Source: a virus. From it: DNA of 64,000 bases. Below the pieces are notes generated by a model that worked only from the letters and a program-made list of their open reading frames with translations, ran no database searches and had not been told where the DNA came from. Shown here in pieces: positions 390 to 39,875 of this stretch. The position numbers were made by a program, and so were the translations under genes. Location: the UHGV virus genome UHGV-1493261. The stretch is one strand, 5' to 3'. Each line of letters begins with the position of its first letter. Position 1 is the stretch's first letter.

Positions 390-432
390 ACATATTAGTA
401 GTATTTTTTATATAGAGTTTACGGTTTGCATT

Positions 433-458
433 ACCCTAACAGATACTGCTGTTAGGGT
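433..458. promoter_or_regulatory. Perfect 10-bp inverted repeat (candidate operator or RNA hairpin)
   Basis: ACCCTAACAG-atactg-CTGTTAGGGT; no T-run after it, so probably not a terminator. Confidence 0.3.
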
Positions 459-641
459 GATTACTTGCCCTGAGATATTAAGCATACCTAACTATGAAAG
501 GGTCCGTTGATCCAAGTGTGTAAGTAGCCAACGCATTATCTCTGTTAGCAATGTCCGTTTAACACTAGCGTCTCAACCTACTACTATAATTCCATTGGTT
601 CGTCTTGTTATACCTTTGTTCATAAATTTTATTAGTTCAGA

Positions 642-3017: not shown

Positions 3018-5126
3018 ATGAACGAAATGTTCTCACAAGGTGGTAAGGGTTCAACTGGAATCCTAACCAATAAACAAGCAGTGGCTCGACACTTTGGGGT
3101 TAAACAATCAGAGGTTGTTTACTTCTCAGCGGGTGCTCTGCTTACTGGTTACAAAGTCATCTATGACAAAGTGTCACAGCGTGCTTATTCCTTACCTGCT
3201 GGCATTGGTTCAGGGGTTACTGCTGTAAGCCTTAGTCCTGCTGGGGTATTAGTTCACTCTGCTGGTAATGTAGACTTAGGTGCACTAGCTGTTGCTCGCG
3301 AAGAATACGTAACCCTACCTGGTTCATTTGATACCGGTGTAACAGTTAATGCTAAGAATGAACTGGTTGTTTTTACTGACGGTAAGTACCGATGGGATGG
3401 TGCGCTTCCTAAAGTCGTTTCTGCTGGGTCTACTCCTATATCAACTGGTGGTATTAGTCTTGGCGCATGGGTTAGCGTTGGTGTTGCGTCATTACTAGCA
3501 AGGCTAAAAAGCAATAGCGCTGGTGAGGGCGCCTCCCTTATTACCTTTGAAAATGGCAATTCTGTTGAGAGTCTTTCCGACAGTGATGGTACTAAAAGCA
3601 TAGGTAGTGGTGAGAGAAGTTTGCAGGAACGTAATAATGATATTAAGCATTCTGGGGATTTCCTTACCTTACAAGCTGCGATAGATGCATCGTTACCGAA
3701 AAATGACTTACTTATTTCCCCTGGTGAATATACTGAAAAAGTTACTATTGGTAACGCACAGTTAAAAGGCGTTGGTGGGGCTGTAGTACTAAAAACACCA
3801 GCAGACTTTACAAACACTGTTCAGGTTAATTCATCTATACCCCATTGGCAATTCCGCCATAGTGGTGGTTTTGCTATAGATGGTTCCGGGACAACCGGGA
3901 GCGTAGGCATTAGTTTTGACCCGTCAGACCAATATTCCGGACGTCATAATTTTAGTGATTTATACATCCACAACATCAACAAGGCCATTCAGAAGCCTTC
4001 CGGGAACATCGGTAATACATGGAGAAATATTGGGATATCTACGTGTGATTGGGGTTACTGGGCGCAGTCTGCTTCTGAGATGCACTTAGGCACCGATACC
4101 CTTCAGAACATGCACTTTGATGGCATTAGTACTTACTGCGTTTATATGAACGCTACAGTAGGTGCAGTGCCGGGTACATTCGGAGGTGGTGTAGGCGGTT
4201 GGTGGATTAAGGATAGTGTCATGGAAGCCTCTGGCGGCGGCGGCATCTATCTCAAGAACAAAGCCGGAGACTGTCCTTCTGCTCCGTGCGGTGTATCCAA
4301 TGTATGGATGGAAGCTATCGCTACTACCCCAGCTGTTAATGTAGATGGTGTAGCTCAGAAGCCTCGTGTGCTTAAGCTCATTGACACTAGCATCTTCTTT
4401 GCAGAGTACACGTATCTGAACAACGTAGAGCTTCAGAACTCCAACCTTGTTGCTTATGGATGTCGTGTAGATAACTCAGATGGCCACATGGATATCTCTG
4501 TAGATGCCAGCAGCAGCTTTGTGGCTGAGCAATTGTACCTGAACGGTAGTTCTGGCAAGGATGTAATGGTGCGCTCTGTAGCGGCTCAGACGGGTATGAT
4601 TGGGCAGGGCTGGACACCTAATATGAGTATGCGTGGTTACCTGCCGGAAGGATACATCTATCGAGTATCGGGTAATAAACTCGTAGCTAAACCATTCGAC
4701 AGCGGTACTGCTGTGTTCGGCGGTACGGCAAGCAGTTCTGGCAGCTTGCAGCCACAAGGCCAGTTATCCCAGAACTGCATGTATTTTGAATTCCAAGGTG
4801 CTGCTGAGTTTGAACTTACTGATGCAGCATGGCAGGTAACCTCCGGTAATTGGTACGTATGGGGCATTAGCACTGAGCTGGTTCAGGGAACTCCTGCGAG
4901 CTTCCGTATTGGTGGGGATATCGGTGTGGGTGAAGTCTTTACTAAGCAGGGTCAGTGGGTGAGTACCTTCGGTGTAGCTCAGGCAAGTGCTTCGGGTGCA
5001 GTGAACCTCAGACTAAGTACTGCTGCAGGTGGTGTAGTAATGCGCTTAGCGGACTACTTCGTTGCTGAGTTCACTACTCAGGCAGAGGCTATGCGCTTCG
5101 TGAACAGTAGGCGTGCTCTGCGTTAA
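3018..5126 (+). CDS. Tailspike protein 2
   Basis: 702-aa ORF with an AAGAGG Shine-Dalgarno; N-terminus MNEMFSQGGKGSTGILTNKQAVARHFGVKQSEVVYF resembles the conserved N-terminal anchor of Vi1-like tailspikes (from memory); Gly-rich beta-helix-like body. Confidence 0.8.
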   Translation: MNEMFSQGGKGSTGILTNKQAVARHFGVKQSEVVYFSAGALLTGYKVIYDKVSQRAYSLPAGIGSGVTAVSLSPAGVLVHSAGNVDLGALAVAREEYVTLPGSFDTGVTVNAKNELVVFTDGKYRWDGALPKVVSAGSTPISTGGISLGAWVSVGVASLLARLKSNSAGEGASLITFENGNSVESLSDSDGTKSIGSGERSLQERNNDIKHSGDFLTLQAAIDASLPKNDLLISPGEYTEKVTIGNAQLKGVGGAVVLKTPADFTNTVQVNSSIPHWQFRHSGGFAIDGSGTTGSVGISFDPSDQYSGRHNFSDLYIHNINKAIQKPSGNIGNTWRNIGISTCDWGYWAQSASEMHLGTDTLQNMHFDGISTYCVYMNATVGAVPGTFGGGVGGWWIKDSVMEASGGGGIYLKNKAGDCPSAPCGVSNVWMEAIATTPAVNVDGVAQKPRVLKLIDTSIFFAEYTYLNNVELQNSNLVAYGCRVDNSDGHMDISVDASSSFVAEQLYLNGSSGKDVMVRSVAAQTGMIGQGWTPNMSMRGYLPEGYIYRVSGNKLVAKPFDSGTAVFGGTASSSGSLQPQGQLSQNCMYFEFQGAAEFELTDAAWQVTSGNWYVWGISTELVQGTPASFRIGGDIGVGEVFTKQGQWVSTFGVAQASASGAVNLRLSTAAGGVVMRLADYFVAEFTTQAEAMRFVNSRRALR

Positions 5127-5132
5127 GTGTAA

Positions 5133-5240
5133 TGGCATTACTATGGGTGGTTCAGGTGTGTGAGTAATTACTTTATCGCTGAGTTTACAACACAATCTCA
5201 GGCTTTGGCTTTCATTAACCCAGGGTTACCACTATCATGA
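5133..5240 (+). pseudogene. Vestigial in-frame duplicate of a tailspike 3' end
   Basis: Just after the TAA-GTG-TAA stops the same frame encodes ..SNYFIAEFTTQSQALAFINPGLPLS*, paralogous to the true C-terminus ..ADYFVAEFTTQAEAMRFVNSRRALR* (about 70% nt identity by eye). Confidence 0.45.
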
Positions 5241-5242
5241 AC

Positions 5243-5271
5243 AAAACCCCGCTTCGGCGGGGTTCTTTTTT
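5243..5271 (+). terminator. Rho-independent terminator
   Basis: CCCCGC-TTCG-GCGGGG hairpin followed by TTCTTTTTT. Confidence 0.6.
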
Positions 5272-5645
5272 ATGTACCTCAAACAAACCATTATGTAGAC
5301 TGTTTTAGTCAATTACGACTTAACTAACCTGAGAAAATCCCTATGGGAAATGAACCAGATAATGTAACTCTAGCCAGACTCGAAGAGAGACTCTGGTAGA
5401 ACTCCGAGATTCAAACAATGACATAGGCAATAGACTAAAGAACGTTGAGGCCAATATGCCAACTTGTGTGTTGTCTGGTAACATCCAGTTGGGCGGTGTA
5501 CGTCGATAGTACTCTGAAACTCTGATTTCTTCGGCGTCAGGCATTAACAGTGTCCGCGTGTACCTGGGAGACCTGAACGAGGGCAAATAATTGATGTTAG
5601 GACACGGCTTCTGCTGAGATCACCACAACCACAGAAAGATAATCA

Positions 5646-5666
5646 AAAGCCCCTTTGGGGTTTATT
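5646..5666 (+). terminator. Small terminator-like hairpin
   Basis: CCCC-TTT-GGGG followed by TTTATT. Confidence 0.35.
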
Positions 5667-5693
5667 CCTTTCTATTCCTCGGTTGGCTGTATA

Positions 5694-5700
5694 CTAAATA
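5694..5700 (+). promoter_or_regulatory. Late-promoter-like motif CTAAATA
   Basis: actaaatatc 35 nt upstream of the ATG at 5735. Confidence 0.4.
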
Positions 5701-5734
5701 TCTCTATAATGGCACCTATCGATGGAGCATCAAA

Positions 5735-8700
5735 ATGCAAGAAATGAACCTCAACCGCCGCCCATATTGGGATGACTGGAATCCAGAGAAGCGCTTTTCG
5801 CGCATCCTATTCCGTCCGGCACCTATCAAAGTTCAGACGCGTGAACTGAACCAGATGCAGACCATCTTCCAGGATCAACTGGAGAAACTTGGCAACCATC
5901 TGTTCAAAGACGGTTCAATGGTTATCCCCGGCGGCCTGACGATCACCAACACTGCAGTTTCCATGAAGTTCACTCTGGCTGGTGGTAGTGAGTTCACTGA
6001 TCTGGAAGGTATCTCCGAACTCTATGTTCTGGGTAAGGACAACAATGCGAAAGCACGCGTCCTGTCTCTGGAACGTTACCCAGCTGAACCGGATACAATG
6101 TATGCCATCTTAGAGATGACTGAGAGTGGTAGTTCAGACGGTTTCGAAGCTGGCGACAACCTATACTTCAACACCTATGACGTGAACGATAACTTCATCC
6201 GTGTCGGCTATGGTGTGGCCGATACTGTTGGCGGTTCGATTGTCGCTCGCATGACAAAGGGTGTTTATTTCGTTCGTGGTATGTTCCTGGATGTTGAACC
6301 AACCACTTTGATCGTAGACAACGCATCGAACTCTACATCTCACCGCATTGGTTTCAAAGTTACAGAAACAATCGTGACTGAAGCAGAAGATGAAAGTCTG
6401 TTCTCCAATGCTCAGGGTACTCCGAACTCTAAAGCCCCTGGTGCGCATCGCCTGCGCGTCGACCTCGTGTTGTCTCGCTACGATTATGATGAAGAAGTGG
6501 CCGACTTCGTTGAACTGGCGAAGGTGAAAGATGGTCGTATTCAGTCTATGGTCGCCCAGTCAACGTACAACATCCTCGAAGACGCGATGGCTCAGCGCAC
6601 CTATGAGACCAATGGTGACTACAATGTCTCTACTCACCAGATCGACCTGCGTGAACATCTGAAAGAGAACAACAACGGCGGCGTTTACGCTCCGGCTGAA
6701 GGTGGTGATGAAAGCAAATTCGTGGCGGTTATGAAGCCAGGGATATCCTACGTTCGTGGTCGTCGTATCGAAAACCTCGGCGAAGAGCTGGTCACAATTG
6801 ACAAAGCCCGTGACACTGATACCCTGAACAACAACCCTGTGGCTGTTTCGACTGGTAACTATCTGGTGTCCAAGAACTCCAAAGGGGTTCCGGTTGTCTC
6901 CCGTACAATCCGCTACAAGTTCCTGAACGCATCCAGCGATGTACAGGCCACCGCCCTGCTGATTTCGGCAGAGCGCTCCGGTACTGAATTCCGTCTGTAT
7001 ATGCGCGACCTCGTTGTCACCGGGGACATGGGCACGGTGACCAAAGTCGCTTATGAAGAAAGCGGTACAACGATGTTCTCTTGCGAACTGGAGTCCAATC
7101 AGTTCAGTCAGAGTTCGGCGATTGACCTGATCTTCCCTCTTCCTGTATTCGGCGTGAAGACCCTAGCACCTACTGGCACCATCGACATCAACTACACCGT
7201 CCTGCGTTCTAACAAAATCACATTGAACGCGGCAGGCACAGGCTCTATCTCTGCTCCTCTGGGATACAGCTTCAGTCCTGAGTTTTCTTTGTACTCAGCA
7301 GCGAAGGCAGACGGCACCACCGCTCAGTTCGATATCTCTTCGGGGCTGTCCCTGGCTGGTACTCCGGTTGGTTCAGCACTACAGATTTCCCTGGGTGCGG
7401 GGTACGCCAACCAGTCTATCAACCTGTTGGCATTGATGGTCCGCACCACAGCGACGATCAAGACCAAGACTGTTACCGAAGTCACCGAGACTGTGACGTT
7501 TACTGTGGCAGCCAGCGTACAACTTGGGAACCACGACGGATACAAGCTGGTCAGCGTGAAGAACGCAAATGGTGCTGACGTCACCTCGAACTTCACTCTG
7601 GACGGCGGTCAACGCGATGCGGCGTACTACCGTTCTAACCTCATATCGTCTACTGGAGCCATCTCAGGCGTGTTCACAGTGGTGTACCAGTACTTCGCTC
7701 ACAGCTCTGGTGATTTCTTCACAGCGGACTCCTATTCGTCCATCAACTACCCAGACATCCCGAACTATGTTTCATCCAGTTCTGGTACTGTGTATGGGTT
7801 GGCCGACAGTCTGGACTTCCGTCCCAAGATCACCAGCGGAGCGTCTGACACGGACATGGTTCGCCCGAACACCGCGATCATCCTAGATGCAGAGTACTAT
7901 CTGCCTCGTATTGATGCCGTGTATCTGGCAGACAACGGCGTGTTCAACGTTGCTCGCGGTGTGAGTTCCAACAACCTGGCTTCCCCTGCGATCCCAGACA
8001 ACGGCATGCGCCTGTATGAATTAATGATCCCACCATACACAGCCAACATTGACGACATCCAGATTCGCACTATCGACAACCGCCGCTACACGATGCGCGA
8101 TATCGGTAAACTGGAGACCCGTATCTCCAATGTCGAATATTACACCTCACTGTCTCAGCTGGAATCCTCGGCGATGGCGCAACAGGTGTTCGATCCAATT
8201 ACTGGCAACCCGCGCTTCAAGAACGGTATCGCAGCAGACCCGTTCAAAGACTTCCGTCTGATCGACGATTTGTCTGCAGACTGGGTGGGTTCAATCGACA
8301 CTGACAATGGTCGCCTGCGTCCGTTTGTTCAGCAGAACGCGATTGACCTGACGCCAGTCGGTTGGAACAACGTTCAGGATGGTATGGTTGTATGCAACTA
8401 CACCCGTGAGATCTCTGTCCGCCAGGACTATGCAACCACGACCATCAACGTGAACCCGTATGCGGTGTTCAACTGGGAAGGTTTCCTGAAACTGAACCCG
8501 ACTACTGATTACTGGTTTGAGAACTACTATGTTACTCCACGTGTGATCAACGAAACGATCAACACCCGTGGTGCGATCAAAGAAGGTTCTGTGTACGGCA
8601 CATGGCGTACTGTGTCCGTGTCTGAGCGTGTGTGGGAACCGCATGGTGCGGGTGGTGTATGGTGGGGCTACCGCTACCGCACGACTGTGTCCACCCGTGA

Positions 8701-10573
8701 CATTACCACGTACACGTACACCGACAGGACGACTACCACCATGACTGGTGAGCAGATCGTTGAAACGCAGGTAATCCCATACATGCGCAAAACGAACATC
8801 AACTTCGAAGCCACAGGCCTGCGTCCGTTCACTCGTGTGTATCCGTTCTTCTCCGGGCGTGATGTGAGCGCGTACTGTACCCCAAACGGTGGTGTACTGG
8901 GTGGTGCGTTGAACACTGATGCCAACGGTAACATCAAAGGTGTGTTTGCGGTTCCTCAGAACGAGACTATCAAGTTTAACACGGGTGACAACGTCTTCCG
9001 TCTGACTGACAGCCCTGTGGACAGCAAGTCTGCTGATGATACCCTGACCAATGCCGAGGCTGTTCATAAGTCCTTCGGCAAGAAACAGGGCATCCAGAAG
9101 ACTTATGTCAACACCCGCGTCCTGGGATACACTGCGACCAAGTCTACGGAAAACAAAACAGAGACGGTTGAAGTCGCGAAGTGGAAAGATCCTATCGCCC
9201 AGTCCTTCATGGTTGCCACCAATATCGGCGGCGAATATATCGAAGGCATCGAAGTGTTCTTCTCTACCAAGTCTCGCGATATTCCAATCACTTTGGAAAT
9301 CCGTGAGATGAGCAATGGTCTGCCAGCGACGACTGTCGTCACTCGTAAGACTCTGAATCCATCAGAAGTTTCCGTCTCCACAGACTCTTCTGTGCCGACG
9401 ATGTTCAAGTTTGATTATCCTGTGTATCTGCAGGCGCAAACCGAGTTCGCGATTGTTCTCTTGGCCAACACTCAGGACTACAACGCATACATCGCAGAGA
9501 TGGGCAAGAAGAACTTGCTGACCAACGAGTTCATTGCCAAACAGCCGTACACTGGCGTGTTCTTCACATCTTCAAATGGTACGACCTGGACTCCAAACCA
9601 GACTGCCGATATGAAGTTCCGTGTGTATCGCTGTAACTTCTCCGCTGGTTCAAACATCGTGACCTTCGATGCTAAAGTCGGTCCGAAGATCCGCCCTCTG
9701 GGTCTGAACACCGTGAAATGTGTCAACGGTTCTTCAACTGTTACTGTGTACGCTCCGGGGCATGGCCTGACTGCGGGTGAAAGTGTTACTCTGTCTGGGT
9801 TGACGGGTGGTTGCGGTTTCACTCCTGAGCAACTGAACGCTCAACACACTGTGACTGATGCGACGTTCACGACGTTCAAATTCGTTCTGAGTTCCAACGC
9901 CGACTCCGACGGTCAGATTGGTGGTGAAGCGGCTTCTTTCCTAGGCAACTACTTGGTAGACATGTTCTACGCAAGCGTCACCAATTCAGCCCTAGAAGGA
10001 TCTGTATTGAAACTGGAATACCGCTATCGCGATGCGACCTCCAACTCATTCTCTGATTGGGTTGAGTTCGAATCCGATACGGACGTGTCTCTACCGACGG
10101 AAGGTATCTATCGTCAGGTGGGCGACTTCCAGGTTCGTGCAACCATGACTCGCAACGAGAGTAATGTCTACACGGCTCCAATGATTGATGGGGATGATTT
10201 CACTATCATCTTCAACACATACGGTGTGGATCCGTTTGAAGACGTGTTCAGCTACGTGACCAAGGATATCGGATTCGATAACCCTTGCACCACTCTGAAA
10301 CAATACTTCGGCGCGATGCTACCTTCTCAGTCTTCAATGACTGTACAGGTTAAACTGCTGCGCGCAGGTCAGGAGATGGATGACGTGGAATGGGAAACTG
10401 TGACACCGACATCCCCTCTGGTCAATGACGGTTCTACATTCTTCGAATATGAGTATGACAAGACTGTAGCCAGTACCAATCCTTTCGTTGGCCTGAAGAT
10501 CCGCCTGCTGGTCAGAGGCAACCGCATAGCACCGCCGTCATTCAAAGATTTCCGTTTGATTGCTCTGGCATAA
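5735..10573 (+). CDS. Large virion structural protein (1612 aa; tail fibre/baseplate-associated candidate)
   Basis: Uninterrupted 4.8 kb ORF with a GGAG Shine-Dalgarno and an upstream late motif; beta-rich Thr/Ser/Gly composition typical of fibre or baseplate proteins. No family recognised. Confidence 0.75.
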   Translation: MQEMNLNRRPYWDDWNPEKRFSRILFRPAPIKVQTRELNQMQTIFQDQLEKLGNHLFKDGSMVIPGGLTITNTAVSMKFTLAGGSEFTDLEGISELYVLGKDNNAKARVLSLERYPAEPDTMYAILEMTESGSSDGFEAGDNLYFNTYDVNDNFIRVGYGVADTVGGSIVARMTKGVYFVRGMFLDVEPTTLIVDNASNSTSHRIGFKVTETIVTEAEDESLFSNAQGTPNSKAPGAHRLRVDLVLSRYDYDEEVADFVELAKVKDGRIQSMVAQSTYNILEDAMAQRTYETNGDYNVSTHQIDLREHLKENNNGGVYAPAEGGDESKFVAVMKPGISYVRGRRIENLGEELVTIDKARDTDTLNNNPVAVSTGNYLVSKNSKGVPVVSRTIRYKFLNASSDVQATALLISAERSGTEFRLYMRDLVVTGDMGTVTKVAYEESGTTMFSCELESNQFSQSSAIDLIFPLPVFGVKTLAPTGTIDINYTVLRSNKITLNAAGTGSISAPLGYSFSPEFSLYSAAKADGTTAQFDISSGLSLAGTPVGSALQISLGAGYANQSINLLALMVRTTATIKTKTVTEVTETVTFTVAASVQLGNHDGYKLVSVKNANGADVTSNFTLDGGQRDAAYYRSNLISSTGAISGVFTVVYQYFAHSSGDFFTADSYSSINYPDIPNYVSSSSGTVYGLADSLDFRPKITSGASDTDMVRPNTAIILDAEYYLPRIDAVYLADNGVFNVARGVSSNNLASPAIPDNGMRLYELMIPPYTANIDDIQIRTIDNRRYTMRDIGKLETRISNVEYYTSLSQLESSAMAQQVFDPITGNPRFKNGIAADPFKDFRLIDDLSADWVGSIDTDNGRLRPFVQQNAIDLTPVGWNNVQDGMVVCNYTREISVRQDYATTTINVNPYAVFNWEGFLKLNPTTDYWFENYYVTPRVINETINTRGAIKEGSVYGTWRTVSVSERVWEPHGAGGVWWGYRYRTTVSTRDITTYTYTDRTTTTMTGEQIVETQVIPYMRKTNINFEATGLRPFTRVYPFFSGRDVSAYCTPNGGVLGGALNTDANGNIKGVFAVPQNETIKFNTGDNVFRLTDSPVDSKSADDTLTNAEAVHKSFGKKQGIQKTYVNTRVLGYTATKSTENKTETVEVAKWKDPIAQSFMVATNIGGEYIEGIEVFFSTKSRDIPITLEIREMSNGLPATTVVTRKTLNPSEVSVSTDSSVPTMFKFDYPVYLQAQTEFAIVLLANTQDYNAYIAEMGKKNLLTNEFIAKQPYTGVFFTSSNGTTWTPNQTADMKFRVYRCNFSAGSNIVTFDAKVGPKIRPLGLNTVKCVNGSSTVTVYAPGHGLTAGESVTLSGLTGGCGFTPEQLNAQHTVTDATFTTFKFVLSSNADSDGQIGGEAASFLGNYLVDMFYASVTNSALEGSVLKLEYRYRDATSNSFSDWVEFESDTDVSLPTEGIYRQVGDFQVRATMTRNESNVYTAPMIDGDDFTIIFNTYGVDPFEDVFSYVTKDIGFDNPCTTLKQYFGAMLPSQSSMTVQVKLLRAGQEMDDVEWETVTPTSPLVNDGSTFFEYEYDKTVASTNPFVGLKIRLLVRGNRIAPPSFKDFRLIALA

Positions 10574-29842: not shown

Positions 29843-30163
29843 ATGGCTAATAGCATCCCGATTTTAGAAGCGGTCGTAAAAGAGAACCCTCGTGCACGCA
29901 AATCACGTCGCCGCCTGACCACCAAACTGGATATTCTGAAGCAGAAGTTCGGCGACCACAGCGTGTTCACTCGCATTCGCAATGCAATAAAGGAAGGGCG
30001 AACTGAGCTGGAGCTATATCGACCGAACGGTTCGACACGCGCGTATCAGACCACTGACGGCTTACTGGAACTGATCCGCCTGAGCGGGATGACGATCGAA
30101 CCTCGTTCGTCAGGCACTCCTCTGTGCTCCCTGTACGTAATCGGCAATCTTGGGGCGCTGTGA
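29843..30163 (+). CDS. Hypothetical protein (106 aa)
   Basis: ATG with AGAGGA Shine-Dalgarno; basic N-terminus. Confidence 0.5.
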   Translation: MANSIPILEAVVKENPRARKSRRRLTTKLDILKQKFGDHSVFTRIRNAIKEGRTELELYRPNGSTRAYQTTDGLLELIRLSGMTIEPRSSGTPLCSLYVIGNLGAL

Positions 30164-30167
30164 TTCT

Positions 30168-30590
30168 ATGAAGAAGTATATCGTTCTCATTACGGGTTCC
30201 CGCTCAATCACCGAGCGGGATAAGGTATTCGCCAAGCTGGACGAACTCCTCGATCCTCATGAAGTCTATACGTTGATCGAGGGTGAGGCCACGGGTGTCG
30301 ACACGATTTGCCGTGATTGGGCTGAAATCAATTATGTTCATATCACTCCCATGCCGATCCCTCCGAGCTATTATGAAAAGTATGGGAACGGGATGGGCAA
30401 CAAACGCAATCAGGACATGTTAGACAAGGCATTGGATCTCGTCAGGCAGACCAAGCTGGAAGTGTATCCGATTGCGATGTGGGATGGTTCGTCCACTGGC
30501 ACCCTGGACATGATCAACCGTTGCAAGAAAGCTGACCTCCCTGTGGATATCACTCTAATGGGTAAGCCGAAGACCAAGCGTCTTTTGTAA
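30168..30590 (+). CDS. SLOG-superfamily (DUF2493/YspA-like) nucleotide-binding protein
   Basis: IVLITGSRS near the N-terminus, EGEATGVDT, and C-terminal GNKRNQDML match the DUF2493/SLOG pattern (GSR .. G.A.G.D .. RN..M). Confidence 0.55.
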   Translation: MKKYIVLITGSRSITERDKVFAKLDELLDPHEVYTLIEGEATGVDTICRDWAEINYVHITPMPIPPSYYEKYGNGMGNKRNQDMLDKALDLVRQTKLEVYPIAMWDGSSTGTLDMINRCKKADLPVDITLMGKPKTKRLL

Positions 30591-30631
30591 CATATCATAA
30601 ATAATTTGAGTACACACAGCGGAGATACATC

Positions 30632-30802
30632 ATGTTTGTCGTCATCAATCTGTTCTGCTATATCTTCACGGCATACTTCTTGGGCGCGGTAGGGATCGAG
30701 ACCTACAATGACCTGAAGGATGGGGAATACGCCAACCGAATGGTTTATGTCAAGAAGTTTGTTCGTAAGTTCTGGTCCAACTTCGTATACAAACTACCAT
30801 GA
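30632..30802 (+). CDS. Small membrane protein (56 aa)
   Basis: ATG with GGAGAT Shine-Dalgarno; MFVVINLFCYIFTAYFLGAVGI hydrophobic helix; not in the ORF track (under 60 aa). Confidence 0.4.
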   Translation: MFVVINLFCYIFTAYFLGAVGIETYNDLKDGEYANRMVYVKKFVRKFWSNFVYKLP

Positions 30803-30805
30803 TCC

Positions 30806-30816
30806 CTAAATACCCC
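30806..30816 (+). promoter_or_regulatory. Late-promoter-like motif CTAAATACCCC
   Basis: Exact match to the motif at 642 and 34003; 24 nt upstream of the ATG at 30841. Confidence 0.5.
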
Positions 30817-30840
30817 CATCATCCATGGGGGTATTTTCTT

Positions 30841-31569
30841 ATGAACGCACAGATCTATGACGCCCTATCGCAGGGCAACGCCTTTACCAATCCTCTCCCG
30901 TCCCTCAGCAGCGCCTCACAGGGGTTAATCACCAGTGGTAAGGCGACTACAGCGTCACTGGCTAACACCGGAAATACGCAGATTCAGGAAGCGCTGGCGG
31001 CAGGTGGGTTGACTACATCCAAACTCAACGAATCTACAGCAATGTTCAACTCAGCCAACGACAGCATCACTACTTTGAACAACTATGGCTACCAGTCAGT
31101 GAACGAGGCATATTCCCGCATCGGTACATCTGTGTCGTATAAGTCCGCCCTGAAGTCTATAGGTCGAGAACCGAACAACTGTGATCTGATCAATAATGCA
31201 TTTGGGGTTATTCAGAACCTCGGCAAACAGTGGATCAACACAATGCAAAGTGTTCTCACAACTATCACAAACAAGATGAATGAGCTGGCTGAGTTGGTAG
31301 CTCAGGGTGTCAGTGCTGGTCTTGATGCTATTCAGGCACTGGCCGCTGAAGTTACTCAGGCCATCGACACTGCTGTCGCATCAGTAGCCTCTATTGCTCA
31401 GGACATCACGAACGGTATTGCAGCAGAGTTAGCCCATATCCAAGACATGGTTGGTAAGTGTCTTAACTTCTCTTTCGCCAACGTGATCTCAGAGTGGGCG
31501 AAAGATATCTGCGCCGGAGGTGTCATTAACAGCATCGGTTCCGATAATCTGAAGAACGCGCTGAAGTAA
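30841..31569 (+). CDS. Putative late (virion-associated) protein, Ala/Ser/Thr/Asn-rich
   Basis: Internal ATG of track ORF 30799 chosen because the late motif sits just upstream; 242 aa. Confidence 0.5.
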   Translation: MNAQIYDALSQGNAFTNPLPSLSSASQGLITSGKATTASLANTGNTQIQEALAAGGLTTSKLNESTAMFNSANDSITTLNNYGYQSVNEAYSRIGTSVSYKSALKSIGREPNNCDLINNAFGVIQNLGKQWINTMQSVLTTITNKMNELAELVAQGVSAGLDAIQALAAEVTQAIDTAVASVASIAQDITNGIAAELAHIQDMVGKCLNFSFANVISEWAKDICAGGVINSIGSDNLKNALK

Positions 31570-32049
31570 TCAGTGCTCCCGCGCCGGAAGAACTCCCACT
31601 GGTTCGATGCCATCCAACAGCAGGGAGTTCACACCCACATTACTCAGTCTGATTAAGATCGTTCCCCCTGGGTTAACTTCAAAAATACTCATCCCATTTC
31701 CAACCGCGTCGTTGTTAACGAACACACCCTGAGTTGCGATTCGTACTGGTTTATCTGAGTCATTCATGATCTTGAACGTCACGATTATATCTGATGTTGT
31801 ATCCAGTCGCCCAACCATGTGTTGCTTCAGCTTGGCATGGAATGATGGATTAAAGGTGATAATGATGCTGTTGTTCTGAGAGTAATAAATACTTGCTGAT
31901 AGGTACGGAATCTTCCCTTCATCGCCACGCCGCAGGAGAGGAATTGTGGTCTTCCAGTATGGCTTGAGGGTGCTCGTGTTCTCATCAAAGCAACCTAAAG
32001 GTACGAGCTTCTGGAAGGGCTGGAACTCTTGCACGATGATGTCCAGCAT
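31570..32049 (-). CDS. Hypothetical protein (159 aa; possible baseplate component); start uncertain
   Basis: Track ORF extends to 32385 (271 aa) but the N-terminal 112 codons are Arg/Ser/Leu/Cys-rich like antisense shadow and would overlap the divergent gene at 32249; beta-rich C-terminal part looks protein-like. Confidence 0.4.
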   Translation of the reverse strand: MLDIIVQEFQPFQKLVPLGCFDENTSTLKPYWKTTIPLLRRGDEGKIPYLSASIYYSQNNSIIITFNPSFHAKLKQHMVGRLDTTSDIIVTFKIMNDSDKPVRIATQGVFVNNDAVGNGMSIFEVNPGGTILIRLSNVGVNSLLLDGIEPVGVLPAREH

Positions 32050-32248
32050 ACCCTTGTTACAAGTGGGAACGCTGGCCGACAACGTCACAGGTACAGTGCG
32101 CACTTCTGGGTTCCAGAGTTCGGAAACAGAAATTATTGGCGTGACAAAGATGCGACAGCTCGTAAACAAGAGCATCGAGCATGCCAACAACAATCTACTG
32201 ATCCCGCGCATCAGGGTCACAAAATATCTCCACAGTAAAGGTGCTATT

Positions 32249-32761
32249 ATGTCCAACGTACAATTTAAGAACGAAAACCCTAATTTCGCGGCGTCCGATA
32301 AGTGGCGTCTGACTATCGGAGACCTTGTACTCCTAACCCGTAACATCCATGACTTCAGTATACCAGGGGTGTACTCCGAAGGCATCGATGGTCCGTCTCC
32401 TGGCGACGTGTTGGTTTCTATCCCATCAGAGCGTTTAACCTATGATCCCGTCGTATTTACTTTCGTTATCGATGAGGAGTGGAAATCATGGTTACAGATC
32501 CACCAATGGATCACCAGCAACGTCGGCAAGGATTTGCCTGTCAGCAAGGACATTACCATTGAATTGCTGGATAACCTCAATCGACCGATTGGCCTCACTC
32601 TCGTGCTGGAGGAAGCCCGCCCGACTGCTTTGGACAACGTACTGGTGGACGTAGACGCGGCTGTACCTCAGCTGGTGACGACAGTGACCTTCAAGTTCCA
32701 ACAGCTGGTTCCACTATCTGGTGGGAAGGCGATTGATTCTAATCCACGAAATGCGGTATAA
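32249..32761 (+). CDS. Tail-tube-like paralog (gp19 fold; baseplate tube/initiator candidate)
   Basis: 170 aa; DPVVFTFVIDEEWKSWLQIHQWITSNVG resembles ALPVTFINVVDNAPYNAFEVWQQYING of the tube protein at 20826; track ORF starts earlier at 31946. Confidence 0.5.
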   Translation: MSNVQFKNENPNFAASDKWRLTIGDLVLLTRNIHDFSIPGVYSEGIDGPSPGDVLVSIPSERLTYDPVVFTFVIDEEWKSWLQIHQWITSNVGKDLPVSKDITIELLDNLNRPIGLTLVLEEARPTALDNVLVDVDAAVPQLVTTVTFKFQQLVPLSGGKAIDSNPRNAV

Positions 32762-32791
32762 TTCTATGACATTGACAAGCTGGGATATTTT

Positions 32792-33244
32792 ATGAAAGAA
32801 CAACTACAGACAATGGCTACCGAGGACATCATGAACGAACTGGAGCCGCTGATCACAGTGGACCCAGAAGACATGAACCTTGACCAGATCTCGCTGAAAA
32901 TCGGGCGCTCTTGGATGGCTGTACAGCGGCATTATCTGCGCGAGGGGCGTTATCTTGAATTTCTCAACGGGCGCTTCCGCCAGATCGATCTCTATCTGCG
33001 CCGCTACTATGCAGGGGAGTTGCCCCCTAACATCTACGCAGAGCGCCCCCTGAAGGTTCGCCCCCTGAAGTCTGACCTGGATACATGGGTCAAAGCAGAC
33101 GATGACTATGTGGAGTTGTCTGTTCTGTTACAAGAACAAAAAGCAAAAGTCAAGTTCATAGAGACTTGTTTGGATCGCCTGAACAAACTGGGATACGAAG
33201 TGAAAAATGCTATTGAGTGGAGAAAATATATTGATGGTGTATAA
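32792..33244 (+). CDS. uvsY: Recombination mediator UvsY-like
   Basis: RRYYAGELP and KSDLDTWVKADDDYVELSVLLQEQKAKVKFIETCLDRLNKLGYEVKNAIEWRKY align with remembered T4 UvsY (DYYSGRG .. KSEMKTVLSADKDVLKVDTSLQYWGILLDFCSGALDAIKSRGFAIKHIQDMRAF). Confidence 0.7.
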   Translation: MKEQLQTMATEDIMNELEPLITVDPEDMNLDQISLKIGRSWMAVQRHYLREGRYLEFLNGRFRQIDLYLRRYYAGELPPNIYAERPLKVRPLKSDLDTWVKADDDYVELSVLLQEQKAKVKFIETCLDRLNKLGYEVKNAIEWRKYIDGV

Positions 33245-33259
33245 CGAGGATCACACATA

Positions 33260-34006
33260 ATGGCATCTCTCCAGGATCTACGCAAGCTGAATGACTTCGA
33301 AAACCGTCATTACACATTCCAGCAATACGAACTTCCTCATAAGGAACTGGAGTGTGTTACGACGGAGAACGGTCGTCATTACGTTTCACCGTCTGGTGTT
33401 AAACTGACATCCGTCACGACTATGCTGGGACGCACTGGAGATCATGAATGGCTTGAGTCTTGGAGGAAGAAGCTGGGCGCAGAGGCCGCTGACCTTGAGA
33501 CTATGCGCTGTGCTGACCGAGGGGAGAAGCTGCACCTTGCGTGTGAACTGTATCTAAAGAACCGCCCAATGAAAGAAGTGTTGGAAGCGGCTGGCGAATA
33601 CATGTTCATGTTCAAGCAGCTGTTCCCTTACCTGAACAAGATGACAAAGATCTATGCTCAGGAGATCCCATTATATAGCGAGGTGCTTGGTCTTGCAGGT
33701 CGTGTAGACCTTATCGGGGTTTATGAGGGTAAACCTGCTGTCATCGACTTCAAGACATCGAACACCATGAAGACGCGGGGCATGATCGAGGATTACAGTA
33801 TCCAGCTGTGCTTATATTCGGTCATGTTCCAGCAGATGTTCGGCGTCAAGATCACCCGCCTCATCAACGTGATTGCCAACGAGTCTTCCCCTCTACCAAC
33901 CGTCATTGAGTTCAACCGTGATGACATTCTGACTAAGATGTTTGAGCGTGTTCGTCTGTATCATCGCATGGATAAAGAACAAAACGGAGTCTGGCCGGAT
34001 CACTAA
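33260..34006 (+). CDS. PD-(D/E)xK nuclease (RecB/Cas4-like fold)
   Basis: GRVDLIGVYEGKPAVIDFKTSNT and QLCLYSVMF give a D .. (E/D)xK .. QxxxY pattern. Confidence 0.6.
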   Translation: MASLQDLRKLNDFENRHYTFQQYELPHKELECVTTENGRHYVSPSGVKLTSVTTMLGRTGDHEWLESWRKKLGAEAADLETMRCADRGEKLHLACELYLKNRPMKEVLEAAGEYMFMFKQLFPYLNKMTKIYAQEIPLYSEVLGLAGRVDLIGVYEGKPAVIDFKTSNTMKTRGMIEDYSIQLCLYSVMFQQMFGVKITRLINVIANESSPLPTVIEFNRDDILTKMFERVRLYHRMDKEQNGVWPDH

Positions 34007-34013
34007 ATACCCC
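34003..34013 (+). promoter_or_regulatory. Late-promoter-like motif CTAAATACCCC
   Basis: Embedded in the last codons of the upstream gene, 22 nt before the uvsW ATG. Confidence 0.5.
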
Positions 34014-34034
34014 ATAATCCTTGGGAGATTTTGT

Positions 34035-35543
34035 ATGGCAGACATTCAGATTGTTAAGGTTAACGAAGTCCGCATGCGTTGCATCGCAGATCTTTCTATC
34101 AGGGAAGAACTTAATGACTACTTCAAATTCGAAGACCCGAACTTCGTTCCCAACCCCTTCTCTAAATGGGACGGGGTTGTCCGCCTATTTACCAAGTCAT
34201 CTGGTCTAATCGATATCGGTCTGCTGTTTGAGGTATTTAAGTTCTGTAAGAACAACGGATACACCATTGAACTGGATCCGGCACTGAAGTACATTCAGGA
34301 CATCCCAGATGAAGAAATCCGTGACTTCATCGACAGTCTGCATCCAAAGATCCGCACCGAAAATCACGAATATATCGATGCCGAGACTCGTGACTACCAG
34401 TACGACACCATTGCCAAGGCTATGCGTCAAACCAGATGCGTCTGTGAACTGGCTACGAGTGCCGGTAAGTCCTTTATTCTGTATGTCATGGCGCGGTACT
34501 ACAGGCGGCGCAGAGAAGCTCTCGAAAGTCCTCTGAAGACGCTTATCGTGGTGCCGTCAATCCACCTAGTCACTCAGCTGTACGACAACTTCGAAGAGTA
34601 TGCGCATGGCAGTGATTGGAAGCCCGTTGTTAACACCCAGCTGATTTTTGAGGGCGCGACAAAGGATATCAGCAAACCAATCGTCATCAGTACATGGCAA
34701 GGCATTCAAGACCAGCCGAAGGAATGGTTCCACCAGTTCGGTGATATCGTGGTGGACGAAGTGCACACCTCCAAGTCTGAGAAACTGTCTTACATCCTAA
34801 ACAACTGCATCTATGCCGACCAGCGCCTGGGGGTTACAGGTACGCTGGCGAACACCAAAGTTGCCGGGCTTCAGGTGGTGGCTCACTTCGGGGCGTACCA
34901 TAAGATCATCACGGCTCGCGACCTTATCAATCTCGGGTACGCCACTGACATCAAAGTGAAGATGATTCAGCTGAAGCACACTCCGGCGGATGCCGTTGGT
35001 CTGGACGGGGATTATTCCAAGGAAATAGAATACCTTATTACACACCAGTCCCGCAACGAACTGATCGCAAAGATGGCGCTGAATCTGAAAGGAAACGTGG
35101 CCATCATGTTCGAGCGTATTGATGGCCACATGATGGTCGTGTATGATATGCTGAGCGCAGTCAAGCCCAACGTGTTTGTCATCAACGGGGAAGTGAAGAT
35201 CGAAGACCGCCGCCACATACAGAAAGCGATGGAGGACGGAGAGGACATCACCCTGTTAGCATCATACGGAACAATGCAGCAGGGTGTGTCAATCAATAAG
35301 CTGCACCACCTTGTACTGGCACACCCGAGCAAGTCATATATCCGCGTCATACAGACATTGGGTCGTCTGATGCGTCAGCACTCCTCTAAGGACGTTGCGT
35401 GGATATGGGACTTAGTTGATGATGCATCGTATAACGCCAGCACGAACCACGCTCTTAGGCACTCTCATGAGCGTTACAAGTTTTACCTGGCAGAGCGCCA
35501 CCCTGTGGAGTTCATGAAGGTGGCGCTGGGTAATCACGATTAA
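34035..35543 (+). CDS. uvsW: UvsW-like SF2 DNA helicase
   Basis: 502 aa; TSAGKSF Walker A, VVDEVH box, LHHLVLAH, QTLGRLMRQH and WDLVDDA align closely with remembered T4 UvsW. Confidence 0.9.
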   Translation: MADIQIVKVNEVRMRCIADLSIREELNDYFKFEDPNFVPNPFSKWDGVVRLFTKSSGLIDIGLLFEVFKFCKNNGYTIELDPALKYIQDIPDEEIRDFIDSLHPKIRTENHEYIDAETRDYQYDTIAKAMRQTRCVCELATSAGKSFILYVMARYYRRRREALESPLKTLIVVPSIHLVTQLYDNFEEYAHGSDWKPVVNTQLIFEGATKDISKPIVISTWQGIQDQPKEWFHQFGDIVVDEVHTSKSEKLSYILNNCIYADQRLGVTGTLANTKVAGLQVVAHFGAYHKIITARDLINLGYATDIKVKMIQLKHTPADAVGLDGDYSKEIEYLITHQSRNELIAKMALNLKGNVAIMFERIDGHMMVVYDMLSAVKPNVFVINGEVKIEDRRHIQKAMEDGEDITLLASYGTMQQGVSINKLHHLVLAHPSKSYIRVIQTLGRLMRQHSSKDVAWIWDLVDDASYNASTNHALRHSHERYKFYLAERHPVEFMKVALGNHD

Positions 35544-35911
35544 TCTTGATTCACATAGGCGGGGGTGGCCTCGCCTTCATCAGATACTACGCCGAACAAT
35601 TTGTCCAGAGAAGCCAGACATTGTGAGTTCAGGTGTTCACTGATCGTATCCTTCAGCATTTGTTCACTACCCAATTTGAATGGCAGAACCTTCGCTTCGA
35701 TGCCGTTTTCAAACGTCACAACGCCGACATACAGACCAACTTTCAGGCCTGTCATCAAGCCAAGGGGGACAAATCGCGGTTCCGATGGTAAGTTCTTGTC
35801 TGACGCCAGCTGTGTCAGATAAACTGGGGTGCTTGTGACAAATTGCCCTGCGGTGAGGATGGCGTCTGGCTTACTGCATCCGACCGCATATAATCCTACG
35901 AACTGTTTCAT
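35540..35911 (-). CDS. Hypothetical protein (123 aa), possible lipoprotein
   Basis: ATG with GAGAG Shine-Dalgarno; N-terminus MKQFVGLYAVGC is lipobox-like; convergent 4-bp overlap with uvsW. Confidence 0.5.
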   Translation of the reverse strand: MKQFVGLYAVGCSKPDAILTAGQFVTSTPVYLTQLASDKNLPSEPRFVPLGLMTGLKVGLYVGVVTFENGIEAKVLPFKLGSEQMLKDTISEHLNSQCLASLDKLFGVVSDEGEATPAYVNQD

Positions 35912-36006
35912 ATATTACTCTCGTGTGTTGGTTAACATGACATACATATTATTTCGCGTGCATGTTTAGACCAAATAAATTAATTTTGCTGTTGAATAAA
36001 AACTGC

Positions 36007-36036
36007 TTTCTTGTTGAACAATGGCGTGGTATTATA
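36007..36036 (+). promoter_or_regulatory. Extended -10 promoter candidate (TGgTATTAT)
   Basis: TG at 36027-36028 then TATTAT at 36030-36035 in an AT-rich divergent intergenic region. Confidence 0.3.
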
Positions 36037-36102
36037 CGAGTTGTGAGCGTTAGCGAACAACGAGTATTTGTTTTATGAGCGAAGCGAATAGGATTAATAA
36101 AG

Positions 36103-36140
36103 ATTATTATCTTTAATAAAGGTTATTATCTTTAATAAAG
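36103..36140. repeat. Two tandem 19-bp direct repeats (iteron-like)
   Basis: ATTATTATCTTTAATAAAG / GTTATTATCTTTAATAAAG; each unit contains the inverted half-sites TTATTA..TAATAA. Confidence 0.6.
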
Positions 36141-36143
36141 TCC

Positions 36144-36164
36144 ATAAATGCCGAAGGCATTTAT
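36144..36164. promoter_or_regulatory. Perfect palindrome ATAAATGCC-GAA-GGCATTTAT
   Basis: 9-bp arms, directly after the iteron-like repeats, upstream of the replication cluster. Confidence 0.5.
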
Positions 36165-36272
36165 TATAACGCGTAGCGCAATTTGCCACTTGTTCTATAA
36201 GCAAAACACAGCGATACTAGATTGCGTCAAACATGACTTGAATCCCCCACTATATTTTGAGGATACATACAA

Positions 36273-36941
36273 ATGCAAGAGATCACTCTCTCCGAACGTA
36301 CACTTCAGTTGCTGGCCAACTTTGAGACCATCAACCCATCTATCGTTCTGACACCGGGCAAGATGCTGCGCAGTATTAATGATTCTTCTACTGTGATCGC
36401 CGTGGCGCAGATCGAAGAAGACTTCCCGTTTGAGTTCCCGATTCTGGACCTGACCAAACTTCTGGCCATCCAGCGCCTACCTTCCTTCAAAGGTGCCAAA
36501 GCCGAATTTCATCAGGACTACATCCTGTTGAAAGGTGAAAGCTCTCAACTGCAGTTCTGGCGCTCCGCCAAAGAACTGACTGTGGTCCCGGCCGACACCA
36601 TCGAACTGCCTTCCGTCGACTTTGAAGCGATCATCACTCCAGAGAAGATGAAAGAACTGACCCGCGCCTGTTCTACCCTCGGACACAAGACTGTGCGCCT
36701 GGTTGCTCAGGGTGGCAAAACACGCCTGGTTGCAACCACCACTACCCTAGACAACTCCAACAACTACACTGTTGAGCTGGGCGAAACCGCACTGCCGGAC
36801 TTCGTAATGCCGCTGGATGTTGCCAACCTGAAAATGATCGAAGGCAACTACACTCTGCGTGCATGTGCTGATCTACAGATGGTGAACTTCCAATCATCCG
36901 ACGCGACGATCAATTACTTCGTCGGCGCACAGATTGAGTAA
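36273..36941 (+). CDS. gp45: Sliding clamp (gp45-like)
   Basis: 222 aa; N-terminus LSERTLQLLANFETINPSIVL parallels remembered T4 gp45 LSKDTTALLKNFATINSGIML; followed by the clamp loader genes. Confidence 0.85.
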   Translation: MQEITLSERTLQLLANFETINPSIVLTPGKMLRSINDSSTVIAVAQIEEDFPFEFPILDLTKLLAIQRLPSFKGAKAEFHQDYILLKGESSQLQFWRSAKELTVVPADTIELPSVDFEAIITPEKMKELTRACSTLGHKTVRLVAQGGKTRLVATTTTLDNSNNYTVELGETALPDFVMPLDVANLKMIEGNYTLRACADLQMVNFQSSDATINYFVGAQIE

Positions 36942-36960
36942 TCAATCTCCAGCCTGATGC

Positions 36961-36998
36961 TATAATGTGTGGGCGGGGCGTTCCCCGCCTATTTGAAA
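36961..36998 (+). promoter_or_regulatory. Cassette: TATAAT, GC hairpin (GGGCGGGGCG-TT-CCCCGCC), ATTTGAAA
   Basis: One of five similar cassettes placed 15-30 nt upstream of start codons. Confidence 0.4.
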
Positions 36999-37021
36999 TG
37001 ATTCTTCTACACGAGGCTGAA

Positions 37022-38011
37022 ATGTCTAATATCACTATCGTTTCCGACCAGTACGCATGGGAAAACAAGTACCGCCCTGACAACCTGGACGAGATTATCA
37101 TCCCTCAAGACGTCCGCGCTAAAATCCATGGCTACATCACCAGCGGCAACGGCAACATCCCGTCTATGCTGTTCTACTCCCCTCAGCCTGGTACTGGCAA
37201 GACTACCTCTGCTCTGGCCGTGTGTAATGAAATCGGCTGTAAGCAACCACTGATGATCAACGCATCCCTGGACAACAGCATCGACGTTATCCGTGACCGC
37301 GTGATTCAGTACTCTACTGGTGTGAGTGTATTCGGTGGCCGCAAAGTCGTTATTCTCGACGAAGTAGAGCGTCTGTCTATGGCGGCACAGGAGTCGCTGA
37401 AGGGTATTGTGGAGAAAGTCTCCAAGAACTGTTCATTCATCCTGACCACCAACGCCAAGCAACGCGTGAACGAACCTCTGCGCTCTCGTTGCCGTGAAAT
37501 CGACTTTATCTGGAACGAGCAGGAAGCACTGGAAGTTCAGAACAAGTTCTGTTTGCGTTGCGTTGAAATCCTCCGCGCCGAAGGTGTTGAGTTCGTTCCC
37601 CAGGTTCTGGCTGCTATCGTTAAGCGCCATTTCCCCGATAATCGCCGCATTATGGGCACCCTGCAGGATAACGTCACCACCTATGGCAAGATTGACGAAC
37701 GCGCCCTGGCTGTGCTGAAAGCAGGCGATATGGGCACGCTGGTCGGTATGCTGAAGACTGAAGATTGGGCTGGTATGAAGCAATGGGTGACTGACAACCA
37801 GAACTACATCACAGAAGACTTCTATTCTCGCTTCTTCCAATTCTGTGTACCACAGGATAAAGAGAAGCCGACGATGGTTAAGAACGAGTCTATCCCAGAT
37901 CTGGTCTGTGTCTGTGGTCAGTCACAAATCGAACATCGTCAGGTGGGTGATGTGTGGCTTCACGCCGTTTATTTCCTGACCAACGTCATGCTCAACATTA
38001 AGTGGAAGTGA
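37022..38011 (+). CDS. gp44: Clamp loader large subunit (gp44-like AAA+ ATPase)
   Basis: PQPGTGKTT Walker A, VVILDEVE Walker B, SRC motif (PLRSRC); ATG at 37022 is Met20 of track ORF 36965. Confidence 0.9.
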   Translation: MSNITIVSDQYAWENKYRPDNLDEIIIPQDVRAKIHGYITSGNGNIPSMLFYSPQPGTGKTTSALAVCNEIGCKQPLMINASLDNSIDVIRDRVIQYSTGVSVFGGRKVVILDEVERLSMAAQESLKGIVEKVSKNCSFILTTNAKQRVNEPLRSRCREIDFIWNEQEALEVQNKFCLRCVEILRAEGVEFVPQVLAAIVKRHFPDNRRIMGTLQDNVTTYGKIDERALAVLKAGDMGTLVGMLKTEDWAGMKQWVTDNQNYITEDFYSRFFQFCVPQDKEKPTMVKNESIPDLVCVCGQSQIEHRQVGDVWLHAVYFLTNVMLNIKWK

Positions 38012-38015
38012 TACG

Positions 38016-38438: not shown

Positions 38439-38467
38439 TTCAAACTATTGTAAAAGGGGAATGAGTC

Positions 38468-38932: not shown

Positions 38933-38948
38933 CTGGAGTCTCTAAATC

Positions 38949-39821: not shown

Positions 39822-39843
39822 GATATACAGTTATTCACTAAAC

Positions 39844-39875
39844 AACAGAGGCTATAATGGCCTCTGTTTTCTTAT
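39844..39875 (+). terminator. Rho-independent terminator
   Basis: AACAGAGGC-TATAATG-GCCTCTGTT followed by TTTTCTT; the track ATG at 39857 lies in the loop. Confidence 0.6.

Follow-up and report, generated by a model that had tools for sequence, protein, structure and literature searches.

Introduction

Gene remnants at the mosaic boundaries of phage genomes, as in lambdoid phages and mycobacteriophages, originate by illegitimate recombination at short similarities, followed by decay. Here we describe what is very probably a stack of such scars, without a function of its own, in the 608-bp gap downstream of a tailspike gene in the virus genome UHGV-1493261. The analysed stretch comprises 64,000 nucleotides and is referred to as the window; all coordinates are those of the window, and features lie on the + strand unless stated otherwise. 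Tailspike swapping sets the host range of phages and is copied in engineered therapeutic and diagnostic phages. Exchange of tailspikes across genera, including Gamaleyavirus and Kuttervirus, is documented by Pas et al. (2023, Virol J 20:174, PMC10408124), who propose a conserved terminator motif downstream of the tailspike gene as a crossover site. Exchange of tailspike modules between genera of lytic phages is also reported by Sørensen et al. 2021 (PMC8432352) and in the paper describing phage AV101 (PMC10791037). Similarity of coding modules alone can tell neither donor from recipient nor the site at which DNA was cut and joined, whereas scars can.

A gap built from separate gene ends

The window originates from an Agtrevirus-like myovirus (Ackermannviridae, Aglimvirinae). 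Its core genes (30000-42000) are 94-96% identical to those of the Escherichia coli and Salmonella phages RPN242, PC3, vB_CECAV_050 (hereafter CECAV_050), LHE287 and AV101, and the tailspike clusters of these phages align with the first 12 kb of the window. Since the neighbouring genes occupy 3018-5126 (a tailspike gene of 702 codons) and 5735-10573 (encoding a 1612-aa DUF4815 protein, annotated in relatives as 'virulence-associated VriC protein'), the gap extends from 5127 to 5734. The original prediction had reported a spacer without open reading frames (ORFs) at 5273-5693 in otherwise tightly packed surroundings. This spacer is real and forms the core of the gap, which is devoid of conserved ORFs, and elsewhere in the window genes on the + strand are mostly 10-300 bp apart. 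The spacer is indeed not AT-rich, with a GC content of 0.42-0.455 across the gap versus 0.43-0.53 in the flanking genes, and the peptide quoted as an example of its short, stop-interrupted frames, MGNEPDNVTLARLEERLW, was located at 5343-5399. The gap was compared by blastn with 50,697 phage records, and its parts were then resolved by local alignments, from which the homologies, junction positions and disrupted frames given below were read directly. The best single record covers no more than 77% of the gap, and separate parts match separate phages. The gap is best described as a mosaic of dead gene ends.

A fragment of Gamaleyavirus gp63

The region 5256-5392 is 92% identical at the DNA level to Gamaleyavirus G7C (Schitoviridae), with the alignment running from the sequence 3' of the tailspike gene gp63.1 into gene gp63. 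Within this region, 5272-5342 corresponds to the spacer between gp63.1 and gp63 and is 92% identical to G7C (L002 4001-4136) and 88-90% identical to F22, PhAPEC7 and PC3. The ATG at 5343 is the start of gp63, and the 18-aa peptide singled out in the original prediction is the gp63 N-terminus. Codons 1-17 (relic 2a, 5343-5392; MGNEPDNVTLARLEERL) are of the G7C type, and the encoded protein is identical to the gp63 N-terminus of G7C, PhAPEC7 and F22. Comparison with AV101 and the Gamaleyaviruses places a deletion scar at 5386-5392, where a single copy of the direct repeat AGAGACT survives. The missing 62 nt, located between GAAGAGAGACT and GGAAGAGACT and retained in AV101 and all the Gamaleyaviruses, include gp63 codons 17-36, and due to their loss between the AGAGACT repeats the frame is shifted and runs into a TAG at 5397-5399. 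The gp63 fragment of AV101 carries a 1-nt insertion of its own and is therefore dead as well. Downstream of the scar, codons 38-56 (relic 2b, 5393-5449; LVELRDSNNDIGNRLKNVE) are of the St11Ph5 type, being nearly identical in DNA to St11Ph5, where the corresponding protein segment reads …EETLVELRDSINDIGNRLKNVE…. In tblastn searches, residues 18-62 are 65-69% identical to the group of St11Ph5, ECBP1 and Bp4, and the reconstructed 56-aa fragment matches PHROG 5211, the N4 gp63 family (E 3.5e-13).

Gene gp63 is intact, with 110 aa, in G7C, F22, PhAPEC7, St11Ph5, Bp4 and N4, and was recovered by tblastn in 80+ Gamaleyavirus and N4-like records. It is syntenic with the genes for holin gp62, lysozyme gp61, spanin and portal gp59 in every Gamaleyavirus examined and in N4. 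The N4 protein (PHROG 5211) is of unknown function and is encoded next to the holin gene. The copy in the window is homologous to it at codons 1-17 and 38-56 but lacks the C-terminal hydrophobic half and contains the internal deletion and frameshift. Its frame ends after 18 codons instead of about 110, the homology stops at codon 56, and downstream of the sequence there are a tailspike relic and the VriC-like gene in place of holin, lysozyme and portal genes. The stretch is a pseudogene fragment. Since gp63 is full-length and syntenic in Gamaleyaviruses and N4 and is found only as fragments in Ackermannviridae, the transfer proceeded from a Gamaleyavirus to an Agtrevirus. The reverse direction, from Ackermannviridae to Gamaleyavirus, is ruled out by the full-length and syntenic gp63 throughout the N4-like phages, N4 included.

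The records consulted also contain questionable gp63 annotations. In several Gamaleyavirus records (e.g. F22, L005 3700-3933; Bp4, L011 2256-2585), gp63 homologues are labelled either 'tail needle protein' or 'tail length tape-measure protein'. Both labels look erroneous, because the protein has 110 aa and a hydrophobic C-terminus, is encoded next to the holin gene and belongs to PHROG 5211, a family of unknown function. The gp63 coding sequence (CDS) of F22 is annotated as starting 99 nt downstream of the conserved ATG.

The end of an older tailspike and the recombination junction

Joined to the gp63 fragment are the last 79 codons, now decayed, of a tailspike gene that was resident earlier (relic 3, 5435-5642; 83% DNA identity) and whose original stop, TAA, is at 5640-5642. 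The counterpart of relic 3 is the 3' end of the gene for an intact 666-aa tail protein of Salmonella phage vB_CECAV_050 (XIF73300.1; L003 1740-3740), the C-terminus of which, …LKNVEVNANLRVASGNIQLDVYVDSTLKTLSSPASSINSVRVYLGDLNEGQIIDVRGTASAATTTNGGGLEFMTITAER, matches phrog_12242, tail protein. The two share the terminal TAA in front of a shared hairpin. The CECAV_050 tail protein gene and related Agtrevirus tailspike genes are in the equivalent genomic position, with the hairpin and the VriC-like gene's promoter immediately downstream. The window differs from CECAV_050 in having the 3' end only, with four indels (+1, -1, -1 and -30 nt) and two premature stops (5507-5509 and 5588-5590). A complete tailspike would combine an N-terminal anchor and a beta-helix body in one ORF; relic 3 holds only the last 79 codons.

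The junction itself is positioned in a patch which is alike in gp63 and the resident sequence (5428-5450; GCAATAG…AAGAAYGTKGAGG). In the alignments, the homology to St11Ph5 gp63 stops at 5450 and that to the CECAV_050 tailspike starts at 5435. Where these homologies overlap, the parental sequences are CTAAAGAATGTGGAGG and CTGAAGAACGTGGAGG, which match at 14/16 positions and form one of only two such (best) 16-mer matches between gp63 and the tailspike gene. St11Ph5 gp63 and the LHE287-type resident junction region match at 21/26 positions. A 14/16 match somewhere between gp63 and the whole 2-kb tailspike arises in 7% of shuffles, and thus the patch is unremarkable in itself; the weight lies in the coincidence of the junction with one of the two best matches. 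AV101, which was independently isolated and sequenced, has the identical gp63/tailspike junction and keeps the 62 nt, ruling out an assembly artefact. Exact-pattern scans for the gp63/tailspike junction yielded 0 matches in IMG/VR and 0 in JGI metagenomes, and the scan of IMG/VR for the 62-nt deletion junction likewise yielded 0 matches. The gp63/tailspike junction was found only in AV101 and the window.

Small genes and structured RNA

A real small gene in this stretch is highly improbable, whether it be the 18-codon ORF, an 81-codon ORF on the - strand or the counterpart of a 41-aa CDS annotated in the spacer of AV101. It is true that the 18-codon ORF at 5343-5399 keeps the native gp63 start context. 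However, this ORF owes its existence to the 62-nt deletion, and the same start in AV101 gives another, 26-codon product via the 1-nt insertion. The 41-aa CDS is one frame of the tailspike relic and is broken in the window by a 1-nt deletion. The sole ORF longer than 30 aa in the gap (5341-5586, - strand, 81 aa, TTG start) is interrupted by stops in AV101 and LHE287 and has no Pfam or PHROG match. A conserved intact small gene, the observation which the original prediction had named as speaking against decay, was looked for in the gap with a negative result. As regards the AV101 record, the CDS of its 'hypothetical protein' WJJ54141.1 (41 aa, L001 3262-3387) is one reading frame of the dead 3' end of the tailspike (…VYVDSTLKILISSASGINGVRVYLGDLNDGK) and is unlikely to represent a gene.

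The second alternative of the original prediction, a structured non-coding RNA or a small regulatory RNA, is just as hard to sustain, and we consider it very unlikely. Such an RNA could be expected in a long non-coding gap that has an ordinary GC content and is flanked by a terminator and a promoter, and there are weak Rfam matches (15-20 bits) at 5159-5342. Nevertheless, in a covariance-model scan of 4900-6000 against Rfam at a permissive E-value nothing reached the gathering score (37-57 bits), all matches fell on the terminator hairpin, and the best of them scored 19.7 bits versus a threshold of 45. Folding of 5273-5645 revealed no excess stability, the minimum free energy being no better than that of dinucleotide shuffles (z = +0.66 for the + strand and +0.99 for the - strand), and a tRNA/tmRNA scan of the stretch found none. 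The stretch is not preceded by a promoter-like site, its relatives vary by 62-, 30-, 6-7- and 1-nt indels, and homologous protein-coding or intergenic sequences in other phages account for the whole of it. The region is common to only three relatives, separated by large indels, which is too few for covariation.

The current tailspike and its predecessor

Further scars are found to the left of the gp63 fragment. The 702-aa protein encoded upstream of the gap contains the Pfam domain Tail_spike_N (PF18668) at residues 91-155 (E 3e-22). At the DNA level, 3492-5144 shares 85% identity with the Kuravirus ES17 tail fibre gene, and the left boundary of this ES17/LM33_P1-like module, at 3492, is directly past the Tail_spike_N anchor domain. 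The 702-aa tailspike combines an N-terminal anchor of the Ackermannviridae type with a receptor-binding body that was taken over from an ES17/LM33_P1-like phage. The module continues for 18 nt 3' of the stop codon (5127-5144), as seen in a local blastn alignment in which window 5000-5144 corresponds to ES17 L009 3009-3156. In ES17, the terminator comes directly after the 3' end of the module, and there is no counterpart of 5145-5240 between the stop codon and the terminator.

This additional segment (relic 1, 5145-5240) was identified by tblastn as the last ~30 codons of an LM33_P1-type tailspike allele. The 3'-end fossil mentioned in the original prediction is genuine: 5160-5240 encodes VSNYFIAEFTTQSQALAFINPGLPLS, which is a divergent version of the 702-aa protein's C-terminus (...DYFVAEFTTQAEAMRFVNSRRALR). 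The duplication is also visible as direct repeats at 5063/5177 and 5077/5197. In tblastn, relic 1 is 65-68% identical over 32 aa (E 8e-6) to the tail-fibre C-termini of LM33_P1 and related Kayfunaviruses versus 54% for the ES17-type C-terminus. Relic 1 is nearer to the LM33_P1 type than to the ES17 type and is therefore the end of an allele that was displaced rather than a new copy of the adjacent ES17-type end. A recent tandem duplication, ruled out by these identities, is also contradicted by many synonymous and conservative differences.

Scars in related phages

The same process is seen in relatives. LHE287 and SKML-39 have another left partner at the same tailspike site, namely, the 3' end of a gene of the Bp4-orf14 type; in Bp4-type Gamaleyaviruses, orf14 is a 218-aa convergent gene between gp63.1 and gp63. 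Upstream of the VriC-like gene in LHE287 (L004 3194-3839) and SKML-39 (L012 1178-1604), the orf14 relic passes into the old tailspike relic at CCTGA|AGAA, a position only a few nucleotides away from the gp63 junction of the window. In SKML-39, a further ~210 nt have been lost between GGAGGTC repeats. In LHE287, the tailspike relic has a +1 indel and one -1 indel in common with the window and AV101, and the relics of these three phages therefore descend from one truncation. Scars of the orf14 type are carried by SKML-39, fGh-Ecl02, RPN242, A221, PC3/PH4 and LHE287; as the commoner state, the orf14-type scar would have come first. In PC3 (L006 4001-4194) and A221 (L007 3514-3687), the Gamaleyavirus intergenic block, together with gp63 codons 1-26, is present in a different tailspike spacer, where it is fused to a terminator at AAAACC(A)AAACCC, a short stretch of similarity.

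The distribution of this block bears on an explanation in which the relics act as cross-family homology arms ('landing pads') for repeated capture of Gamaleyavirus receptor-binding modules. Stretches of ~120-180 bp, 88-93% identical to the DNA 3' of gp63.1, would be paired with the conserved anchor-domain motif upstream of them, and the arms (the gp63 5' end or the orf14 3' end, 120-250 bp) would allow homologous, not illegitimate, recombination at co-infection. At least five Agtrevirus-like phages carry a common 121-nt Gamaleyavirus block, in two spacers and behind different tailspikes, and each Ackermannviridae copy is nearest to a different Gamaleyavirus and not to the other Ackermannviridae copies: window and G7C differ at 7 positions, PC3 and PhAPEC7 at 6, and A221 and F22 at 7, versus 11 for window and PC3 and 12 for PC3 and A221. 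In addition, the window and AV101 have a common right junction and differing left terminators (one hairpin versus the two of G7C), and conserved flanking motifs are proposed as recombination hotspots by Pas et al. (PMC10408124). The pattern hints at repeated exchange, but the block offers only 121 nt with 22 variable sites, and a few independent captures without an ongoing role could produce it. Moreover, use of the relics as homology arms would be a side effect of the scars and not a sign that they are under selection. We therefore treat the explanation as tentative and rather unlikely. If it were true, Schitoviridae and Ackermannviridae would share one tailspike gene pool.

Another patchwork spacer, of ~490 bp, is located at 179-669, upstream of the tailspike gene at 670-2967 (765 aa). 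It opens with a hairpin (186-207) after the end of a tailspike gene running off the left edge of the window. The segment 247-350 is an 87-89% match to the - strand of the tailspike genes of hz69 and GZMU_E2010, the conserved terminator motif is at 360-385, and 411-608 (- strand) is a decayed relic of the last ~75 codons of a Bp4-orf14-type Gamaleyavirus gene, with stops and a deletion.

Working elements at the edges

The terminator given in the original prediction as the left bound of the spacer (5243-5271) is present and is an intrinsic terminator of a type found 3' of tailspike genes in many phage genera, with a stem of 8 pairs (5245-5264) followed by CTTTTTT. Its core, CCCCGCTTCGGCGGGG, is also found at 365, 2976 (2 mismatches) and 18450 (6 matches versus 0.02 expected), with the copies at 365 and 2976 standing after the other tailspike genes. 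The 5245-5264 hairpin, 90-100% identical, trails tailspike genes in ES17 (Kuravirus), G7C (Gamaleyavirus) and the Ackermannviridae members PC3, AV101, A221 and LHE287. Both features of the conserved tailspike terminator are thus found: a GC-rich hairpin with a T-run after a tailspike gene, and conservation across genera. In position, function and taxa, the terminator agrees with 'motif three' as described by Pas et al. 2023 (PMC10408124).

The right bound, predicted as a hairpin plus a late motif (5646-5700), was likewise recovered. The hairpin at 5647-5663, which is directly 3' of the stop codon in CECAV_050, corresponds to the terminator of the ancestral tailspike, and its stem varies in a paired way (CCCC/GGGG in the window, CCCTC/GAGGG in CECAV_050). 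It is followed by the sigma-70-like promoter and leader of the VriC-like gene (5683-5734), comprising a -35 element TTGGCT at 5683, the octamer ACTAAATA at 5693-5700, a -10 element TATAAT at 5705-5710 and GGAG at 5724-5727, with the ATG at 5735. The whole block 5647-5734 is conserved across Ackermannviridae, with ~93% identity in >200 records. The octamer occurs 8 times in the window, versus 1.2 expected by chance, and always on the + strand (641, 5693, 12204, 16496, 20792, 24333, 34002 and 63100). The two copies examined, at 641 and 5693, are shortly upstream of the gene starts at 670 and 5735. The octamer looks like a phage late-promoter element akin to the T4 late -10 box, TATAAATA. The gap would have working elements only at 5243-5271 (terminator) and at 5647-5734 (hairpin, promoter and ribosome-binding site), and annotation pipelines should call no genes in it.

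Proposed order of events

The first alternative of the original prediction, a decayed gene left by module exchange, is borne out in duplicate, since the stretch holds two decayed fragments, one corresponding to the 5' half of gp63 and the other to the end of the older tailspike gene, with donors and junctions identified. In the scenario that we favour, the phage would switch host specificity by trading the receptor-binding portions of its tailspikes with other phages. A crossover downstream of the incoming module would be required every time, and a crossover past the donor stop and before the resident stop would leave behind downstream DNA of the donor together with the 3' end of the displaced gene. 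The scars would then be ordered from right to left as from oldest to youngest. The original tailspike would have ended at 5642, with its terminator hairpin and the VriC-like gene's promoter coming directly after it, an arrangement preserved in vB_CECAV_050. It would have been replaced by a module from a G7C-like N4-type podovirus (Gamaleyavirus), bringing in the donor's terminator, the spacer between gp63.1 and gp63 and the 5' half of gp63, with the crossover in the short patch of chance similarity at 5428-5450. This replacement probably overwrote an earlier flank of the Bp4-orf14 type, still present in LHE287 and SKML-39, with a later module of the G7C/St11Ph5 type crossing in the 21/26 patch to give the state of AV101 and the window; the shorter relic of SKML-39 would result from a further deletion between its GGAGGTC repeats. 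Subsequently, the receptor-binding body would have been swapped again, first to an LM33_P1-type and then to an ES17-type module, leaving the relic at 5145-5240. Decay would account for the 62-nt deletion between AGAGACT repeats, the 30-nt deletion and several 1-nt indels.

Several points weigh against this scenario or limit it. The order of events, including whether the orf14 or the gp63 flank came first, is inferred from parsimony and distribution, not from a dated phylogeny. No gp63 which is G7C-like in codons 1-36 and St11Ph5-like in codons 37-56 was found among the sampled Gamaleyaviruses, and therefore either the actual donor is unsampled or the relic is itself recombinant. The presence of two left partners within a few nucleotides of one tailspike site is unusual; we attribute it to the 21/26 similarity patch, but a site-preferring mechanism may have been at work. 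The absence of function, which we infer, concerns a region that may be subject to read-through transcription or to translation of the 18-codon ORF at 5343-5399. The relics of the window and AV101 are 91-93% identical, compared with 94% for the core genome; their persistence near core-genome identity is compatible with neutrality without proving it.

Comparison with known systems

In comparison with the tailspike exchange described in the published studies (PMC10408124, PMC8432352, PMC10791037), the locus is alike in the left boundary of the module just past the N-terminal anchor and in the cross-genus terminator hairpin downstream, and the partners, including Gamaleyavirus, Kayfunavirus and Ackermannviridae, are alike as well. 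The published exchange consists of similarity of coding modules and a 20-nt downstream motif, to which the window adds the direction of transfer and junctions at nucleotide level. The portions of the literature that were searched contain no mention of Agtrevirus spacers with fragments of Gamaleyavirus flanking genes or with the 3' ends of displaced tailspikes. The presence of a truncated N4-like core gene in Ackermannviridae DNA fixes the direction of transfer, from Schitoviridae to Ackermannviridae, the junctions show that crossovers used similarity patches of 5-26 nt, and the three nested relics show several successive refillings of one slot. For the design of chimeric phages, the junctions mapped here point to insertion-tolerant sites.

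With the gene remnants at phage mosaic boundaries, the locus shares junctions at short similarities (14/16, 21/26 and CCTGA), truncated border genes and deletions between short direct repeats. There is no difference in principle; the record is unusually legible, with three nested scars and donors from a different family. The mechanism is ordinary and the feature is of a known kind, and its value is in the clear record of the direction and the junctions of a cross-family transfer.

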